In this document: positions 6,969-20,449 of the stretch, piece by piece
Layout of the letters: the number at the start of each line of letters is the position of its first letter
Numbering within the stretch: position 1 is the first letter of the stretch
DNA from: a virus
Length of the DNA stretch: 34,823 nucleotides
UHGV virus genome: UHGV-0362719
Strand: one strand, 5' to 3'
Made by a program: the position numbers and the translations under genes
Notes under the pieces: generated by a model
Told to the model about the DNA's origin: nothing
Databases searched by the model: none
Seen by the model: the letters and a program-made list of their open reading frames with translations, nothing else

Positions 6969-7406
6969 ATGGTAAGAGTTTGCATTGATAAGAAAGGGAA
7001 TGTTATCACCGATATCTCTTTGGGAGTCGGGGATTTTGAAGATTGTTGTAGCGTAGCAGAGGAGAAGTATAATCAGGCACTTTGCAGTAATTTTGTGAGT
7101 GTGGTGGCAGTGGTGAATGACGATAATGAGAAAATAGGTTTTTGTTCATTCATCATTGAATCTACAGAGGACGCTGTAATATATCAAATCGATTATGTTT
7201 GGGTTAAGCAAAGTGAGCGGGGACAAGGGTTATCAAAATTAATGATTCCTTATGTGGCTCAAGAGCTTATTTCTATTTATAAAGACTTGCTTGGAAAGTA
7301 TTCATTTGGTGATATATGTCTTTGTGATAATTCTGTTTATATATCGGATGGAGGGGCTGTTTTTGGTCGAGGGGTAAAGGGATTCACCTTTAATGTAATT
7401 AAGTAA
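6969..7406 (+). CDS. Cargo ORF, GNAT-like acetyltransferase candidate
   Basis: 145 aa, low GC. Segment VWVKQSERGQGLSKLMI resembles the GNAT motif-A acetyl-CoA loop (R-G-x-G-h-g). Weak, by-eye call. Confidence 0.4.
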   Translation: MVRVCIDKKGNVITDISLGVGDFEDCCSVAEEKYNQALCSNFVSVVAVVNDDNEKIGFCSFIIESTEDAVIYQIDYVWVKQSERGQGLSKLMIPYVAQELISIYKDLLGKYSFGDICLCDNSVYISDGGAVFGRGVKGFTFNVIK

Positions 7407-7462
7407 TTCCGGGTGAAATGAAAAAGATATCTCAATGTTTGAGATGGAACAAATTTAAGAAA

Positions 7463-7500
7463 CTCCGCCGGTGCTGAAACTTGCTTTCAGTGCTGGCGGA
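7463..7500. terminator. Bidirectional hairpin between convergent cargo ORFs
   Basis: Seen: about 15-bp imperfect stem (CCGCCGGTGCTGAAA / TTTCAGTGCTGGCGG, three G-U wobbles) with loop CTTGC, lying between the stops of 6969-7406 (+) and 7515-7946 (-). Confidence 0.5.
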
Positions 7501-7514
7501 GGTGAAGTAAGGCG

Positions 7515-7946
7515 TTAGCTAGTTATCAGATTGACACCGAGGGTAAGCAGGTTTGTTACTGCACCGGCAATAACACCAGGTGTCCCGTCCTTCACTGCGC
7601 TGATAATCTTATCTCCCATCGTTTCATTACCGCCAAGTGCTTCGGGTTTTTTGTTGAGCACCGCGAGTGCTTTCTCGGTCAGTCGCACATCATGAAAACC
7701 GGTCTGATGGTCTGTTCCGTACAGAATATAGCCGTTTTCGCTTAAGAAAGTGAATGTGCCATCAACCACACTACGCAACTGATTCAGTGCTTTCATTTCT
7801 GGTGAGTTAAGTTGGTCAAAGTAGTCATCAGGTAACGCGGCGTTAAATTTTTTGTAGGTGATGACTTGTGGTACAGGAAAGTTATCCCATAGCACCGCAA
7901 AGATTTCTGCCGTCTGTTGGTTGAATAATTCGAGATTTTTGGACAT
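7515..7946 (-). CDS. Cargo hypothetical protein (143 aa), unknown function
   Basis: Track ORF with AAGGGA RBS about 8 nt upstream of ATG; hydrophobic Gly/Ala-rich C-terminal tail (GTPGVIAGAVTNLLTLGVNLI). No recognisable family. Confidence 0.55.
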   Translation of the reverse strand: MSKNLELFNQQTAEIFAVLWDNFPVPQVITYKKFNAALPDDYFDQLNSPEMKALNQLRSVVDGTFTFLSENGYILYGTDHQTGFHDVRLTEKALAVLNKKPEALGGNETMGDKIISAVKDGTPGVIAGAVTNLLTLGVNLITS

Positions 7947-8450
7947 GCATAGTTCCCTTTCATCAATTAAAGACCCTTATGCCGACTGGGCAAAGAGGCT
8001 AACTGTAATGGCCTCAAATAACGACCTGAGCTCACGCGAGGTGGACAGTTACACTGAAAAAATGGTTGAACAAGCCAGTAAAGATGAGCTTATGGTCGTT
8101 ATAAAATACCTGTTAAATCACATCAGAATGAGTAAATAAAATGATCTATATCAAGATGTTATCTCACATTTATGAAAGTCCGTGGACAACGATTTTTCTG
8201 CTAATTGTTGTCAGTACGTGCCTCAACAGTGTGATTGGTGCATTGCGCGGCCAGTGACAACTATAAAAATTGATCAGAACCGGCACCATGAATGCCGGTT
8301 TTTTTGTGCTTTTTCTGTGATATCCCCGTTTTTATCTGTGCATGGTTTTGCATGTGCCGGAGTTACATGTTCTGGCTGTGCGTCCGCCAGGACTGGCGTG
8401 GCTCAAAAGCGGTATTGCAACTGCATTAAAACCGCCCCATGAAGCGGGCG

Positions 8451-8469
8451 GGCGAGGCGGGGAAAGCAC
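8451..8469. promoter_or_regulatory. cos: Putative cos site (19-nt cohesive end GGCGAGGCGGGGAAAGCAC)
   Basis: Seen: exact 19-mer GGCGAGGCGGGGAAAGCAC at 8451-8469 with flanking dyad symmetry (CCGCCC...GGGCGG). Matches my recollection of the P2/P4 cohesive-end sequence, which I cannot verify here. Confidence 0.5.
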
Positions 8470-8575
8470 CGCGCGTAAGATAAACAGAAGAGCGAAGGAT
8501 TATGGTTGAGTATTTGTGTTTTTGTACATATGATAAAAAGGTGTTTACGCTTAAAAACACATCAAAGGAGATGAT

Positions 8576-9877
8576 ATGGAAAATATAAAGATTGATAAGT
8601 TTCTCACTATTCAAAAAGTTGATATTCCTCTTAAGAAAGTGAATATATTTATTGGGCCTCAGGCACAGGGGAAAAGTGTCATTGCAAAGCTAATAAAATA
8701 TTTTAAAGATTACCCTATGGATATACTACGAGCTTCAACAGAGGGTAAAACTAAAAGAGATATATTGAAGGAGCAAAAGAATAAGTTTAGTAAAATTTTC
8801 CCTCAGCAGTATTGGGCTGATGATGAGTTTTTTATTGAGTATAGTAATAAGCACTATTGGGTGCGGATTACTAATCGAAAAGATAGCAAAGGGTCATTGA
8901 AAATAACCCTTTCTGAGAATTTAACGAAGACGATTGCTAAACTTCGTTTGATTGTACGAAAGGATTTAGATGAAAATATTGAGAATTCACTTGCAGAAAG
9001 CGTTACGAGAAGACGTAAACGCGGAATTGAACATGAATTGCGAGTATGTCTTTCTCTAGGATTGTTTTCAGAACCAGAAACAAAGCTTGAAAGTGTTTTT
9101 TATATCCCCGCAGGGCGCTCTTTTTTTGCTAACTTGCAAAAAAATGTGTTTTCATTTTTATCCAGTAGTATAGAAATTGACTACTTTTTGACAGAGTTTG
9201 GTTCTCTGTATGAACAAACAAAAAAATTATTTAGCCAAGATTACATGATTAGGATGCTTAGGGGGGCTGTGCCTCAACATGTTAATAAGCTTGTGGAGGA
9301 GTTGATTTGCGGAAAATATATAACAGAAAAGGGTGAGGATTTTATTCGTCATGCTGCTAAAAAGACGAATCTTAACAACTCGAGCTCAGGGCAGCAAGAA
9401 GCGTTACCAATGGCTTTAATGTTATCCTCATGGCCGTATTTACAGTCTATGACTAGTAAGAGTTTTATTATTGAGGAGCCGGAGGCTCATCTGTTTCCTT
9501 CTGCCCAAGCAAAAGTTGTATCTTTAATAGCCTCAGCGTATAACCAAGCAGAAAGCTATTGTAGCTATACAATAACAACACATAGCCCATATATTCTAAG
9601 TGCCTTCAATAATTTGATTCAAGCAGGTAATGCATTGAAGTGTATTAAGGGCAAGAATAATGCCGATATCGAACGCTTATATAAGCTTGTTCCAGAGTCT
9701 CAAATTATTGATTTTGATGATGTGACAGCTTATATGGTTAATGCTGGGAAAGTGACGGAAATACTGGATTCCGAACTAAATATATTAGATGCGAATGAAA
9801 TAGATAGGATTTCCTCTATTTTTTCAGAGACTTTTGATGCATTGATTGATATCGAATATTCGGCTACTGTGAATTAG
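8576..9877 (+). CDS. ABC-type (OLD/SMC/RecF-like AAA_15/AAA_21-type) ATPase, candidate defence protein
   Basis: 433 aa, strong AAGGAG RBS. Seen motifs: Walker A GPQAQGKS; signature-like SSGQQ; Walker B/D-loop FIIEEPEAHLFP; H-loop TTHSP. No TOPRIM-like C-terminal domain evident. Very low GC relative to the backbone. Confidence 0.8.
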   Translation: MENIKIDKFLTIQKVDIPLKKVNIFIGPQAQGKSVIAKLIKYFKDYPMDILRASTEGKTKRDILKEQKNKFSKIFPQQYWADDEFFIEYSNKHYWVRITNRKDSKGSLKITLSENLTKTIAKLRLIVRKDLDENIENSLAESVTRRRKRGIEHELRVCLSLGLFSEPETKLESVFYIPAGRSFFANLQKNVFSFLSSSIEIDYFLTEFGSLYEQTKKLFSQDYMIRMLRGAVPQHVNKLVEELICGKYITEKGEDFIRHAAKKTNLNNSSSGQQEALPMALMLSSWPYLQSMTSKSFIIEEPEAHLFPSAQAKVVSLIASAYNQAESYCSYTITTHSPYILSAFNNLIQAGNALKCIKGKNNADIERLYKLVPESQIIDFDDVTAYMVNAGKVTEILDSELNILDANEIDRISSIFSETFDALIDIEYSATVN

Positions 9878-9885
9878 GTGATTGA

Positions 9886-10323
9886 ATGTGTAAAAATTGC
9901 AAAGGAAAAACAAAAAATAAAATCATTGTGCTATCTGATAAAGGAACGTCAACGCAATTGTCAGTCATAAATGATAATGAGTTGGAGGTTGAGCATAAGT
10001 TAATAGATGGTTGCGCTATTGTTGTTGGGGAGCGGTGTGATCATTATTTGAAGATTTATAACAATCAGGATGTTTCACATCTTTTTGTTGAACTTAAAGG
10101 AAGTGATGTTGAAAAAGCTGTTAAACAGATAGTGACAACTTTAAAGTCAGGTGTGATTAATGTAGGTGCTAAAGAAAAAAAACATGGTGCTATTGTTAGC
10201 ACTAGGAATCCGCTAAACTCAACAGAAACCAATAAGTTAAAGAAGAAAATTCTTTTGAGTGACGGAGTGAATTTGCATTTCTATAAAATGAAGGCGCAGC
10301 AAAAAATAACTTCTTTTACATGA
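9886..10323 (+). CDS. Small partner protein of the ABC ATPase (145 aa), possible nuclease-like effector
   Basis: Starts 9 bp after the ATPase stop, same strand (operon). N-terminal CKNCKGK (CxxC); possible D...ExK arrangement (ERCDHY ... LFVELKG). Nuclease assignment is inference only. Confidence 0.6.
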   Translation: MCKNCKGKTKNKIIVLSDKGTSTQLSVINDNELEVEHKLIDGCAIVVGERCDHYLKIYNNQDVSHLFVELKGSDVEKAVKQIVTTLKSGVINVGAKEKKHGAIVSTRNPLNSTETNKLKKKILLSDGVNLHFYKMKAQQKITSFT

Positions 10324-10336
10324 AGTGTTCTCTTGT

Positions 10337-10360
10337 ACAGGCATGCATTTGCATGCCTGT
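10337..10360 (+). terminator. Palindromic hairpin after the ATPase cassette
   Basis: Seen: ACAGGCATGCA-TT-TGCATGCCTGT near-perfect palindrome 14 bp after the 10323 stop, followed by a weak T-rich stretch. Confidence 0.4.
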
Positions 10361-10426
10361 CGTGTAATCTTTTACACTATATTTGTGTTGGTTCTAATCT
10401 TGTTATGTGTTTGTTTCGGTGATGGA

Positions 10427-11446
10427 TCATAATGAATAAGTTCGAAAGCGAAATACATCTTCGCCAACCCAACAGTTAATTTCTTTACATCGCTCTTGGA
10501 GGAACGTTAGCTCGTTGCGTACAAAGACTTGTGCTGCTTTTGTTACATCTCCAAATCCTCCTGTGTTGTTGGGCATCATTCCTATCATTTGGGGAGGCAC
10601 GCGATGAGCACTCATTAGATCTTCAGCACTTGCTTTTTTGATATTAAAAAAATCGTCCTTCGTTGCCACTTCACTGAGCGGGATAATTTTAATGCCGTCG
10701 GCTTTCCCCTGCGGGGCATAGAGAAACAGATTTTTAAAGTTATTGCGGCCTTTCGACTTAACCATGTTTTCGCGAAGCATTTCGATATCGTTGCGATCCT
10801 GCACGGCATCGGTGACGTACATGATGTATCCGGCATGTGCGCCATTTTCGTAATACTTGCGGCGGAACAGCGTGGCTGATTCATTCAGCCAGGCAGAGTT
10901 AAGGGCGCTGAGATACTCCGGCAGGCCGTACAGCTCCTGATTAATATCCGGCTCCAGCAGGTGAAACACGGAGCCGGGCGCGAAAGGTGTCGGCTCGTTG
11001 AAGGACGGCACCCACCAGTAAACATCCTCCTCCACGCCACGGCGGGTATATTTTGCCGGTGAGGTTTCCAGTCTGATGACCTTACCGGTGGTGCTGTAAC
11101 GCTTTTCCAGAAACGCATTACCGAATACCAGAAAATCCAGCACAAAGCGGCTGAAATCCTGCTGAGAAAGCCACGGGTGTGGGATAAACGTTGAGGCCAG
11201 AATGTTACGTTTGACGTAAATCGGTGAGCTGTGATGCACGGCAGCACGCAGGCTTTTTGCCAGACCGGTAAAGCTGACTGGTGGCTCATACCATCTGCCG
11301 TTACTGATGCACTCGACGTAATCCAGAATGTCACGGCGGTCGAGTACCGGCACCGGCTCACCAAAGGTGAATGCCTCCATTTTCGGGGCGCTGGCGGTCA
11401 TTTTTTTTGCCGCAGGTTGCGGTGTTTTCCCTTTTTTCTTGCTCAT
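10427..11446 (-). CDS. Q: Portal protein Q
   Basis: 339 aa (P2 Q about 344 aa), leftward, immediately downstream of P with overlapping stop/start; synteny. Confidence 0.9.
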   Translation of the reverse strand: MSKKKGKTPQPAAKKMTASAPKMEAFTFGEPVPVLDRRDILDYVECISNGRWYEPPVSFTGLAKSLRAAVHHSSPIYVKRNILASTFIPHPWLSQQDFSRFVLDFLVFGNAFLEKRYSTTGKVIRLETSPAKYTRRGVEEDVYWWVPSFNEPTPFAPGSVFHLLEPDINQELYGLPEYLSALNSAWLNESATLFRRKYYENGAHAGYIMYVTDAVQDRNDIEMLRENMVKSKGRNNFKNLFLYAPQGKADGIKIIPLSEVATKDDFFNIKKASAEDLMSAHRVPPQMIGMMPNNTGGFGDVTKAAQVFVRNELTFLQERCKEINCWVGEDVFRFRTYSL

Positions 11447-18717: not shown

Positions 18718-19147
18718 TGCCGTCACGGTGCTGAAAACTAACCCCGATATGCTGCGGATATTCGTGGATAACGGGAGTATTGCCTCCACACTGGCGAGGT
18801 CGCTGTCATTTGAAAAGCGTTACACGCTCAATGTCATTGTGACCGACTTTACCGGTGATTTTGACCTGCTCATCGTGCCGGTGCTGGCGTGGCTGCGGGA
18901 AAATCAGCCCGACATCATGACCACCGACGCAGGCCAGAAAAAGGGCTTCACGTTTTATGCGGACATCAACAATGACAGCAGCTTTGATATCAGTATCAGC
19001 CTGATGCTGACCGAGCGCACGCTGGTCAGTGAGGTGGACGGCGCGCTGCATGTGAAGAATATCCCGGAACCTCCGCCGCCGGAGCCGGTCACCCGCCCGA
19101 TGGAGCTGTATATCAATGGCGAACTGGTGAGCAAGTGGGATGAATGA
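18680..19147 (+). CDS. R: Tail completion protein R
   Basis: 155 aa (same as P2 R); synteny. Confidence 0.85.
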   Translation: MLKPDSLRRALTDAVTVLKTNPDMLRIFVDNGSIASTLARSLSFEKRYTLNVIVTDFTGDFDLLIVPVLAWLRENQPDIMTTDAGQKKGFTFYADINNDSSFDISISLMLTERTLVSEVDGALHVKNIPEPPPPEPVTRPMELYINGELVSKWDE

Positions 19148-19592
19148 GTTTAAGCGTTTTGAAGACCGGCTGACCGGACTGATTGAATCGCTGTCACCGT
19201 CAGGGCGTCGGCGACTGAGTGCCGAACTGGCGAAACGCCTGCGGCAGAGTCAGCAGCGTCGGGTGATGGCACAGAAAACTCCGGACGGCACACCCTACGC
19301 GCCACGCCAGCAGCAGAGCGCCAGAAAAAAGACCGGTCGTGTTAAGCGAAAAATGTTTGCGAAACTTATCACCAGTCGTTTTTTGCATATCCGCGCCAGC
19401 CCGGAACAGGCATCAATGGAGTTTTACGGCGGGAAGTCACCGAAAATCGCCAGTGTGCATCAGTTCGGTCTGTCGGAAGAAAACCGGAAAGACGGTAAGA
19501 AAATTGATTATCCGGCGCGTCCTCTGCTCGGCTTTACCGGTGAGGATGTGCAGATGATTGAAGAGATTATCCTGGCTCACCTTGAGCGTTAG
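19140..19592 (+). CDS. S: Tail completion protein S
   Basis: 150 aa (same as P2 S); synteny. Confidence 0.85.
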   Translation: MNEFKRFEDRLTGLIESLSPSGRRRLSAELAKRLRQSQQRRVMAQKTPDGTPYAPRQQQSARKKTGRVKRKMFAKLITSRFLHIRASPEQASMEFYGGKSPKIASVHQFGLSEENRKDGKKIDYPARPLLGFTGEDVQMIEEIILAHLER

Positions 19593-19663: not shown

Positions 19664-20449
19664 TTATGAGTGGTTTTTATTTGATGCTTTGTATTCTAAA
19701 ACCTTCTTATTGGCGTAAAGGAATTTTGTATATGACAGGAATATAAGCAGACCTGAAATGAAATAGGTTAGGGACATTATTAATAATGTTTTTCTGTAGC
19801 TGTTATTATCTTTAATCTCCTGACTTAACCATTCGGAGTCCTCCTTGTTTAGCTGTAAGAGCTTATTGCAGGCGATCTCGGGAAGTGTGTCTTTTATAAA
19901 TACGTTTTGCAGACTCTTGCAATCGGCAAGGCTATAAGTTTTATTAAATTCAACCGTTTTATTTTTGAAGGATAAAAGAACTTTGTCACTATAAACATAG
20001 TACATCATATTTTTATATGGTATACCTATGGCATCCCTTACTATAGCGGATTGTTCATTGTGTATATAACATGCGAAGAGAATATAAATAATACTGGCCA
20101 GAATTACAATTGTTGTTTTAATTATGTGTGGTGGTTTTGTTATGTCACCCCAGAAGCGAGTAAGGAAAAAATACGATGTTTTTAGTTTTCCATCAATCAG
20201 CCCCTGCTGTATCATTCTCACATCTTCGATGCCTGATACATTGATTCCGTTAATTATTTTAAATAGTTGAATGTCGCGCCATTTTTTGTCGAGCATTTTT
20301 AACTTTCTGTCTGAATACTCAAGATTGAAATGATGTGCAATAAACCTCATAAGATTACTTTTACCAAAGGTAACAAATGTTAATGCTATTAATAAAAATA
20401 GATACAAAGAGATAAACCACCACGCATTAGTCACATTATCACTGAACAT
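19664..20449 (-). CDS. Cargo multi-pass membrane protein (261 aa) at the S-V junction (P2 orf30 position)
   Basis: Track ORF on the opposite strand to the late operons; very AT-rich; hydrophobic helices seen (WWFISLYLFLLIALTFVTF, TIVILASIIYILFACYIH, LLIMSLTYFISGLLIFL). Confidence 0.6.
   Translation of the reverse strand: MFSDNVTNAWWFISLYLFLLIALTFVTFGKSNLMRFIAHHFNLEYSDRKLKMLDKKWRDIQLFKIINGINVSGIEDVRMIQQGLIDGKLKTSYFFLTRFWGDITKPPHIIKTTIVILASIIYILFACYIHNEQSAIVRDAIGIPYKNMMYYVYSDKVLLSFKNKTVEFNKTYSLADCKSLQNVFIKDTLPEIACNKLLQLNKEDSEWLSQEIKDNNSYRKTLLIMSLTYFISGLLIFLSYTKFLYANKKVLEYKASNKNHS

Follow-up and report, generated by a model that had tools for sequence, protein, structure and literature searches.

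What is the two-gene cassette of low GC content that lies between the cos site and the portal gene Q of the P2-like virus genome UHGV-0362719, and does it belong to any recognized family? We analysed the entire stretch of 34,823 nucleotides, hereafter the window. The first-pass annotation had read the cassette as a candidate anti-phage defence system, composed of a sensor ATPase and a small effector, and had declared that this pairing could not be placed in a named family. The reading as a candidate defence system of a sensor ATPase with a small effector is supported; the claim regarding its family was wrong, as the cassette is WonAB. Accordingly, while the defence reading stands, the novelty does not: the cassette is already known as the published WonAB. 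We consider it very likely that the P2 prophage here carries a member of the WonAB family, i.e. a two-gene abortive-infection defence system expressed from the lysogen.

Organization and genomic context of the cassette

Both genes of the co-oriented pair were confirmed as open reading frames, coding for proteins of 433 and 145 aa, respectively (Table 1). The tight coupling noted earlier holds, with 8 nt (GTGATTGA) separating the wonA stop codon TAG from the wonB ATG; the 9 bp initially given is a difference of coordinates rather than the actual gap. Likewise, the strong ribosome-binding sites that had been proposed can be seen directly ahead of both start codons. The GC content, estimated by eye at about 35% for the cassette against about 52% for the backbone, comes to 0.347 (34.7%) upon computation versus 0.519 (51.9%) in the window outside the hotspot. 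A consensus scan recovered a sole promoter-like site on the plus strand from cos to the start codon; shuffled sequences contain at least as many such sites as this region, making this weak evidence for the candidate promoter. On the other side of the operon, the RNA of a perfect palindrome is predicted to fold with -23.5 kcal/mol (z -5.9) on the plus strand and -23.1 kcal/mol (z -6.9) on the minus strand, with 0 shuffles folding equally well. Lying between the convergent wonB and Q, it is a probable bidirectional terminator.

Table 1. Features of the wonAB cassette and its immediate surroundings in the window
Feature	Coordinates	Strand	Basis or remark
P2/P4 cos site, 19-nt cohesive-end sequence GGCGAGGCGGGGAAAGCAC	8451..8469	+	exact match; 0.01 expected by chance
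Candidate sigma-70 promoter TTGAGT-17-TATGAT	8506..8534	+	consensus scan, 9/12
Shine-Dalgarno AAGGAG for wonA	8565..8570	+	direct sequence reading; 5 nt ahead of ATG 8576
wonA homologue (433-aa OLD-type ABC ATPase; putative sensor/activator)	8576..9877	+	ORF, ATG start
Shine-Dalgarno-like AGGTGA for wonB	9876..9881	+	direct reading; overlaps wonA stop codon, 4 nt ahead of ATG
wonB homologue (145-aa divergent PD-(D/E)xK-fold predicted nuclease; putative effector)	9886..10323	+	ORF, ATG start
Perfect palindrome ACAGGCATGCA-TT-TGCATGCCTGT	10337..10360	.	between convergent wonB and Q
Portal gene Q	10427..11446	-	convergent with wonB

The placement between cos and Q was also correctly recognized, with an exact cos sequence on one side, Q on the other and the gene for the gpA replication endonuclease upstream of the cassette. 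The cargo slot is bounded on its left by the cos site. The homology shared with other P2-like prophages ends at around position 8481: when positions 8400-10450 were used as the query, the first 82 nt matched more than 2100 genomes. Whether other P2-like prophages lack the cassette, a point raised by the first-pass annotation, could be answered from 5426 complete E. coli genomes, 2122 of which possess the P2 cos flank while just 10 of these carry the cassette. A collection of 50,697 phage records lacks it altogether and has matches to the cos flank alone. A copy with 99.1% identity occurs in E. coli E24377A, in which the operon is intact inside a decayed prophage. The gpA-gpQ slot is a known defence hotspot of P2, with Old sitting in the same slot of P2 itself (PMC9122126), and according to PMC13586616 the cargo at this hotspot is exchanged rapidly and not retained. 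Taken together, these observations support the cassette being a horizontally acquired, exchangeable two-gene module of the P2 gpA-gpQ defence hotspot.

A role in P2's own life cycle was considered in view of the position adjacent to cos. This was rejected because only 10 of the 2122 genomes with the flank have the cassette and because its homologues occupy unrelated positions, whether within other prophages or on the chromosome of a cyanobacterium.

The ATPase component

The 433-aa protein had been described as bearing the full set of ABC/OLD/SMC-type motifs. Each of these is present in the translation, namely GPQAQGKS (residues 27-34), SSGQQ (270-274), FIIEEPEAHLFP (297-308) and TTHSP (334-338), and all four correspond to invariant columns in a 37-sequence alignment of the family. 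Pfam searches recovered AAA_15 (8e-21) and AAA_21 (4.5e-9) only, and neither a TOPRIM nor any other nuclease domain, consistent with the earlier contention that the protein is not a simple orthologue of P2 Old. Searches with NCBIfam returned only ATPase matches far below the cutoffs, such as MADS3, PtuA and RecF, and the sole match in a search of PDB sequences was the ATPase core of the OLD protein 6p74 (E 0.0057 over 46 residues). The nearest solved folds to an AF2 model of the protein (pLDDT 84.9) are those of PtuA, Rad50 and the SMC heads, the similarity to PtuA being at TM 0.4-0.49 with 11-16% identity. The ATPase ends in a C-terminal extension comprised of strands (residues 383-395) and a helix (407-432), which displays invariant D410, S413 and L423 residues.

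The partner component

The family of the 145-aa partner comprises 2322 representatives, across which D41, C51-D52, E69-x-K71 and Q81 are invariant. At the level of sequence, this constitutes a divergent version of the signature of a predicted PD-(D/E)xK nuclease. The signature had been missed in the first reading. Structure comparisons with two programs gave restriction-endonuclease-fold proteins as the best matches, and all the nucleases among these best matches are DNA endonucleases: FokI, N.BspD6I, EcoT38I, BamHI, MUS81-EME1, McrC and HamA. A Foldseek search of the partner model against the PDB yielded no match below E 0.001. A profile of the partner family run against PDB sequences retrieved only spurious matches to SidC (E 0.6), Pfam searches with 48 family members returned no consistent family, and PHROGs gave no match for the 145-aa protein.

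Assignment to the WonAB family

WonAB is an abortive-infection system from the V. cholerae WASA-1 prophage (Adams et al., Nat Microbiol 2025, PMC12137116). The first-pass annotation had been unable to place the pairing in a named family; we found that the ATPase matches the characterized WonA over nearly its full length (37% identity over 412 aa, E 2e-74, using a V. cholerae WonA sequence of 399 aa that is incomplete) and that the partner is the canonical WonB (39% identity over 80 of 145 aa, E 6e-13). In V. cholerae the WonA substitutions K34A, R182A, E300A and H333A and the WonB substitution K71A each abolish defence (PMC12137116). All five of these essential residues are present here: K33, R181, E301 and H336 of the ATPase align with K34, R182, E300 and H333 of V. 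cholerae WonA and are invariant among 37 WonA homologues, while K71 of the partner occupies the identical position in V. cholerae WonB and is invariant in the alignment of the partner family. Membership in the WonAB family is supported by the similarity of both the ATPase and the partner to the V. cholerae prototypes together with the retention of every residue shown to be essential by mutation.

The two systems are also alike in their organization, each being a prophage-borne two-gene operon with the ATPase gene first, an OLD-type ABC ATPase without a nuclease domain and a partner of about 140 aa with a variant of the PD-(D/E)xK signature. However, the present cassette lies in the cos-Q hotspot of a P2-like prophage with no adjoining regulator gene, whereas the WASA-1 operon comes after a putative transcriptional regulator in V. 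cholerae. Moreover, the proteins share just 37-39% identity and the WonB alignment is a partial one; thus, the trigger and the target could differ from those of V. cholerae.

The pairing itself is conserved across phyla. A partner of 138-145 aa is encoded directly downstream of a homologue of the ATPase in a Pseudomonas prophage, on a Nostocales chromosome and in an Enterobacter lambdoid prophage, and these three partners share the D/C-D/E-x-K/Q signature. Eight further pairs of the two components, matched in the length of their longest contigs, probably lie on the same contigs.

Predicted mechanism and alternative explanations

V. cholerae WonAB, which blocks Vequintavirinae in E. coli, requires both its genes and brings about a lysis-independent abortive infection, in which the phage DNA replicates but capsids do not assemble, and translation stops while the genomic DNA stays intact (PMC12137116). 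Overproduced WonB is toxic solely in the presence of active WonA, and WonB is a Lon substrate that is degraded (PMC12137116). By homology, WonA would dimerise head-to-head around two ATP sites, with its C-terminal extensions holding the small, unstable PD-(D/E)xK nuclease WonB. A cue that arises after the infecting phage begins DNA replication might then elicit ATP-dependent activation by WonA, upon which the nuclease activity of WonB, centred on K71 with D52, E69 and Q81, would shut down translation leaving the chromosome undegraded. The substrate of WonB would likely be tRNA or rRNA. As a consequence, growth of the infected cell would stop and capsids of the competing phage would fail to assemble. 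PARIS has been reported to cut tRNA (PMC10802454), and a preprint describes Old as an abortive tRNase (bioRxiv 10.64898/2026.07.10.737580); both would fit the translation arrest by WonAB. That the E. coli allele is active, that its two proteins form a complex, and what triggers it and which RNA it targets, we infer only by homology to the V. cholerae system.

The partner differs from V. cholerae WonB in its cysteines. Its relatives retain C5 in 97%, C43 in 94% and C51 in 100% of the retrieved sequences, with an additional C2 in the enterobacterial homologues. C5/C43/C51 are found in this WonB and in about 95% of the retrieved representatives, whereas V. cholerae WonB keeps C51 alone. It is conceivable, albeit unlikely, that the P2-borne E. 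coli branch works differently from the prototype: the triad might form a metal site that alters the gating of the nuclease or its substrate, the cue or the RNA might be different, or the system might act beyond virulent phages, in competition among P2-like phages or against P4 satellites.

Also unlikely is a restriction-like mode of action, wherein WonA recognizes foreign or aberrant DNA and WonB cuts the phage DNA without any host shutdown. It would accord with the nuclease structural matches of WonB, all of which are DNA endonucleases, and with the fact that Rad50, SMC and PtuA, the closest relatives of the ATPase with solved structures, act on DNA. Even less probable is a toxin-antitoxin or addiction module, in which WonA would restrain a WonB toxin to stabilize the prophage, with phage resistance as a side effect. 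Consistent with such a module, excess WonB strongly poisons V. cholerae and the protein is unstable, being a substrate of Lon (PMC12137116), the Pfam description of AAA_21 and one source name mention an "AbiEii toxin, type IV TA system", and the E24377A operon has stayed intact despite the decay of its prophage. However, V. cholerae WonB is toxic only together with WonA and its ATPase activity and no longer so once wonAB is deleted, whereas an antitoxin would act in the opposite way (PMC12137116), and the swift exchange of cargo at the hotspot (PMC13586616) argues against retention by addiction. Abortive infection by WonAB is the favoured explanation.

Relationship to other systems with OLD/ABC-type ATPases

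That the cassette merely resembles WonAB and is instead a divergent form of PARIS, Septu or an Old-type system is exceedingly improbable: although AriA is the second-best PADLOC match of the ATPase (1.7e-25), with weaker matches to PtuA and GajA, and its closest solved structures are those of PtuA, the partner has no AriB/DUF4435, TOPRIM, HNH or helicase match, the ATPase has no fused TOPRIM, and V. cholerae WonA gives the same generic AriA, PtuA and GajA matches, which therefore reflect the common ABC-ATPase core. What the cassette shares with PARIS, the Septu/retron PtuAB, Gabija GajA and P2 Old is the coupling of an OLD/ABC-type ATPase sensor to a nuclease effector, often in prophages or satellites. 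It differs from them in its effector, which is a small stand-alone protein of the PD-(D/E)xK type, while AriB, Old and GajA have TOPRIM/DUF4435 domains and PtuB an HNH domain.

Individually, PARIS was rejected based on the size of the partner (145 aa versus the ~35 kDa AriB) and the lack of DUF4435, TOPRIM or AriB matches in Pfam and PADLOC, and Septu/retron PtuAB based on the lack of an HNH match to the partner in the same two collections. An orthologue of P2 Old was discarded as no C-terminal TOPRIM is fused to the ATPase (Pfam, PADLOC, NCBIfam), and Gabija as there is neither a TOPRIM fused to the ATPase, as in GajA, nor a helicase partner (PADLOC, Pfam).

PD-T4-4, from an E. coli ECOR strain, has an organization similar to that of WonAB, from which it varies in the inserts and the C-terminal extension of the ATPase (PMC12137116). 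It resembles the cassette in combining an ABC ATPase with a small PD-(D/E)xK-type partner, and PD-T4-4_A matches residues 234-426 (1.1e-16). However, this covers the C-terminal half of the ATPase alone, and this system was rejected because the 145-aa partner has no match to PD-T4-4_B in PADLOC.

Two computational candidates have the same architecture as the cassette. The first, PDC-M29 of PADLOC, matches the ATPase with PDC-M29A at 2e-31 in two stretches and the partner with PDC-M29B at 2.8e-4. The latter profile is matched by 44 of 48 representatives of the partner family, with a best value of 1.3e-11, and V. cholerae WonA and WonB likewise match PDC-M29A and PDC-M29B. The PDC-M29 scores are moderate, suggesting that the cassette belongs to a sister branch and not to that subfamily itself. 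A full-text search found no paper on PDC-M29, and the term "PDC" is missing from the P. aeruginosa hotspot paper. The second is the "OLD-ABC ATPase + novel REase" operon (Krishnan et al. 2020), the homologues of which encompass all WonAB homologues according to PMC12137116.

The cassette in published catalogues

The P2 prophage of several E. coli lineages carries WonAB where phage P2 has old and tin. As an E. coli-native allele in a well-understood prophage, it would be a convenient model for the trigger and RNA target of WonAB. The MacSyFinder model of the WonAB authors produced 198 WonAB hits (PMC12137116), and the E24377A copy (ECE24377A_RS06440/06445) is #2 in their Supplementary Table 4 (PMC12137116); it is through this published listing of the 99.1%-identical locus that the present cassette is linked to the model. 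For the four RefSeq protein accessions no mention was found in full texts, and they are present in supplementary tables only. Similarly, in the literature searched, supplementary tables alone connect the cassette with the hotspot list of P2 and with WonAB, and no link from either of these to PDC-M29 was found. The exact proteins, WP_023486639 and WP_040030509, constitute P2-hotspot system #81 in Table S5 of Rousset et al. 2022 (PMC9122126), where it is labelled only "AAA_15/AAA_21" and has 45 occurrences in 18,150 loci, as a catalogue entry outside the set assayed in that study (PMC9122126). System #81, PADLOC PDC-M29 and the experimentally validated WonAB seem to be either one and the same or close relatives.

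Identification of the cassette as a WonAB defence system

The two genes between cos and the portal gene Q code for a 433-aa ATPase and a 145-aa partner, which the first-pass annotation proposed as a candidate anti-phage system that it could not place in a named family. It was right about defence; the cassette is a member of a family with a published phenotype and a name, WonAB ('WASA OLD-ABC ATPase nuclease'), described from the WASA-1 prophage of V. cholerae (Adams et al. 2025, PMC12137116). Using the V. cholerae IEC224 WonA and WonB sequences from Supplementary Table 4 of that study, we found that the window ATPase aligns with WonA over 412 aa (37% identity, E 2e-74) and the partner with WonB over 80 aa (39% identity, E 6e-13). 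The identity to the prototype is moderate (37-39%). The five mutationally defined residues are shared: K33, R181, E301 and H336 of the ATPase are the aligned counterparts of WonA K34, R182, E300 and H333, and K71 of the partner is WonB K71, at the identical position number. In V. cholerae, defence requires both genes and is abolished by each of WonA K34A, R182A, E300A and H333A and WonB K71A (PMC12137116). Moreover, hit #2 in the published homologue list (ECE24377A_RS06440 and RS06445; Supplementary Table 4, PMC12137116) is the E. coli E24377A copy, 99.1% identical to the window cassette.

The PADLOC search that the first-pass annotation had advised matched both genes: the ATPase scored best against PDC-M29A (2e-31), and the partner matched PDC-M29B (2.8e-4) alone. 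The latter model also matches 44 of 48 partner-family representatives. A literature search for PDC-M29, an uncharacterised candidate, found no paper. V. cholerae WonA matches AriA and PDC-M29A, as does the window ATPase, and WonB matches PDC-M29B at 1.2e-9. As the prototype gives the same pattern, the AriA, PtuA and GajA matches reflect a common ATPase core. PDC-M29 is either WonAB itself or a sister branch.

The gpA-gpQ region was defined as a defence hotspot by Rousset et al. 2022 (PMC9122126). Their Table S5A holds the window's exact proteins (WP_023486639 and WP_040030509), accompanied in some genomes by WP_000042039 and WP_000252694, neighbours also present in the window. In Table S5B the pair is system #81, labelled 'AAA_15/AAA_21' and counted 45 times in 18,150 loci. 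The window sequences are absent from the tables of tested systems in that study, where the E. coli allele is catalogued only. The system is already known by name, phenotype and a homologue list that includes this E. coli cassette; what the present analysis offers is the cross-link between Rousset system #81, PADLOC PDC-M29 and WonAB, and an E. coli-native allele in which to seek the trigger and target.

Conservation of the pair across genomes

The ATPase has homologues widely distributed among Enterobacterales, Pseudomonas and cyanobacteria. We inspected three divergent loci, in a Pseudomonas prophage, a Nostocales chromosome and an Enterobacter lambdoid prophage: in all three, a gene for 138-145 aa lies directly 3' of the ATPase homologue on the same strand, and its product shows 30-34% identity to the window partner with every signature residue retained. 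Eight further ATPase/partner pairs are probably co-located, since the sizes of the longest contigs agree between the two homologue searches, which points to the same contigs. The Pseudomonas pair (L003 5001-6718) adjoins an S24-peptidase repressor gene, and the Enterobacter pair (L006 5001-6714) occupies a slot between replication genes and RusA/nin-type genes. WonAB homologues hence use differing cargo slots in unrelated prophages; such a conserved pair, whose location varies from prophage to prophage, is typical of defence modules. Unlike the V. cholerae prototype, the window cassette is borne on a P2-like prophage and has no regulator gene directly upstream.

The ATPase and its predicted nuclease partner

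The first-pass annotation had seen no TOPRIM or nuclease domain in the 433-aa protein, and indeed Pfam returns only AAA_15 and AAA_21, with no TOPRIM, HNH or further nuclease domain among the Pfam, PADLOC and NCBIfam models. The solved structures nearest to its AlphaFold2 model (pLDDT 84.9) are PtuA (Septu, retron) and the Rad50 and SMC heads, at TM-scores of 0.4-0.49 and 11-16% identity; the protein is thus an OLD/SMC-type ABC ATPase that lacks a close solved relative. Membership of PARIS, Septu, Gabija, Old and PD-T4-4 was also considered, and each fails a tested defining feature (PADLOC, Pfam).

The 145-aa protein has no family in Pfam, NCBIfam or PHROG. When 1.84 billion representative proteins were searched with a profile, 2322 relatives were recovered at E <= 0.001 (971 at E <= 1e-10), the best 150 of which are small (about 100-170 aa, mostly 130-150 aa). 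Across 145 aligned sequences D41, C51, E69, K71 and Q81 are invariant, while D52 and N29 are conserved in 99%, C5 in 97% and C43 in 94%. The D...E-x-K...Q residues mark the beginning and end of two neighbouring strands, after which comes a helix; this is the PD-(D/E)xK arrangement, and WonB has been described as 'a variant of the PD-(D/E)xK nuclease fold' (PMC12137116). Foldseek searches with the structural model (pLDDT 85.7) gave EcoT38I, BamHI, MUS81-EME1, FokI and Cap4 as best matches, none below E 0.001, a suggestive but modest support for a nuclease fold.

The window partner and most of the retrieved family possess a C5/C43/C51 triad, to which enterobacteria add C2, whereas in V. cholerae WonB the positions of C5 and C43 are taken by H and G, and only the equivalent of C51 is kept. 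The triad could be a metal-binding site that is dispensable to the prototype; speculatively, it is the sole feature here with potential for novelty.

Mechanism

Against ICP1, V. cholerae WonAB acts by lysis-independent abortive infection: phage DNA replication begins, but no capsids are assembled. Translation halts, and genomic DNA remains intact (PMC12137116). WonB is an unstable Lon substrate, and the authors suggested that it targets rRNA or tRNA; WonAB also blocks every BASEL member of the Vequintavirinae in E. coli, and homologues occur in 0.43% of genomes (PMC12137116). Our literature search found no later mechanistic WonAB paper. Transferred to the window cassette, this model is the best-supported account: by homology, a replicating phage would be sensed and an ATP-dependent WonA dimer would license the small nuclease WonB, which would then stop translation and thereby abort the infection. 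The present analysis establishes family membership, the catalytic residues and the genomic context, whereas the trigger, the WonA-WonB complex and the substrate are inferred.

The main rival is a restriction-like mode in which WonB cuts DNA, since all nucleases among the structural matches of the partner are DNA enzymes; the V. cholerae data oppose it (PMC12137116). A toxin-antitoxin module is contradicted by the finding that WonB overproduction is toxic only with active WonA (PMC12137116).

Genomic context and neighbouring cargo

Features of the cassette, its surroundings and a second low-GC island
Feature	Coordinates	Strand	Remarks
GNAT-like acetyltransferase	6969-7406	+	weak
143-aa protein	7515-7946	-	phrog_2266
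64-aa protein	7945-8139	+	phrog_2454
GC-rich hairpin, then T-run	8432-8451	-	CCGCCCGCTTCATGGGGCGG TTTTAATGCA; overlaps first base of cos
P2/P4 cohesive-end sequence	8451-8469		19 nt, exact sequence match
Promoter-like site	8506-8534		weak; the one between cos and the ATPase start codon
ATPase gene	8576..9877	+	433 aa; TAG stop at 9875-9877
Partner gene	9886..10323	+	145 aa; ATG start
Palindrome	10337-10360		perfect, 11-bp arms; between convergent partner gene and Q
Portal gene Q	10427..11446	-	terminase gene behind Q
Virion-morphogenesis gene	19140-19592		
261-aa ORF	19664-20449	-	hydrophobic stretches
Baseplate gene	from 20515		

Both ORFs lie exactly where the first-pass annotation had put them, between cos and Q, and its by-eye GC estimate (35% against 52%) is nearly exact, the computed values being 0.347 for the cassette and, with the hotspot excluded, 0.519 for the window. 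AAGGAG occurs 5 nt 5' of the ATPase ATG; a Shine-Dalgarno-like AGGTGA overlaps the ATPase stop codon, and 8 nt (GTGATTGA) lie between this stop and the partner ATG. On both strands the palindrome folds far more stably than do shuffled controls. The hairpin may be a terminator of leftward transcription toward the gpA-side accessory genes or a part of the cos recognition region. In the annotation of the identical chromosome region of E. coli 2452, the gpA replication endonuclease is followed by three small accessory genes, then by cos, both cassette genes and Q.

The cos flank (first 82 nt of the 8400-10450 query) is matched in 2122 of 5426 complete E. coli genomes and the whole cassette in only 10, of which eight match at 100% and two, E24377A among them, at 99.1%, in keeping with the absence from other P2-like prophages that the first-pass annotation had proposed to check; none of 50,697 phage records has the cassette. 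The cassette is accessory cargo and a separate module: E24377A keeps it without the three small gpA-side genes (6969-8139, GC 0.41), which accordingly form an independent module. None of these three matches a PADLOC model.

The P2-like prophage of E24377A (L001, NC_009801.1 1001531-1015565) is decayed, with a truncated portal gene adjoining wonB and a tape-measure gene split by an IS21-family element, and both wonA and wonB are intact. This is consistent with retention of the defence genes by the host after prophage death.

A second low-GC island (~0.33) holds the 261-aa ORF, on the strand opposite to the virion-morphogenesis and baseplate genes that flank it. It has no PADLOC match and no meaningful Pfam match; as it sits at the P2 tail-gene accessory hotspot (PMC13586616), it is possibly an uncharacterised cargo gene.
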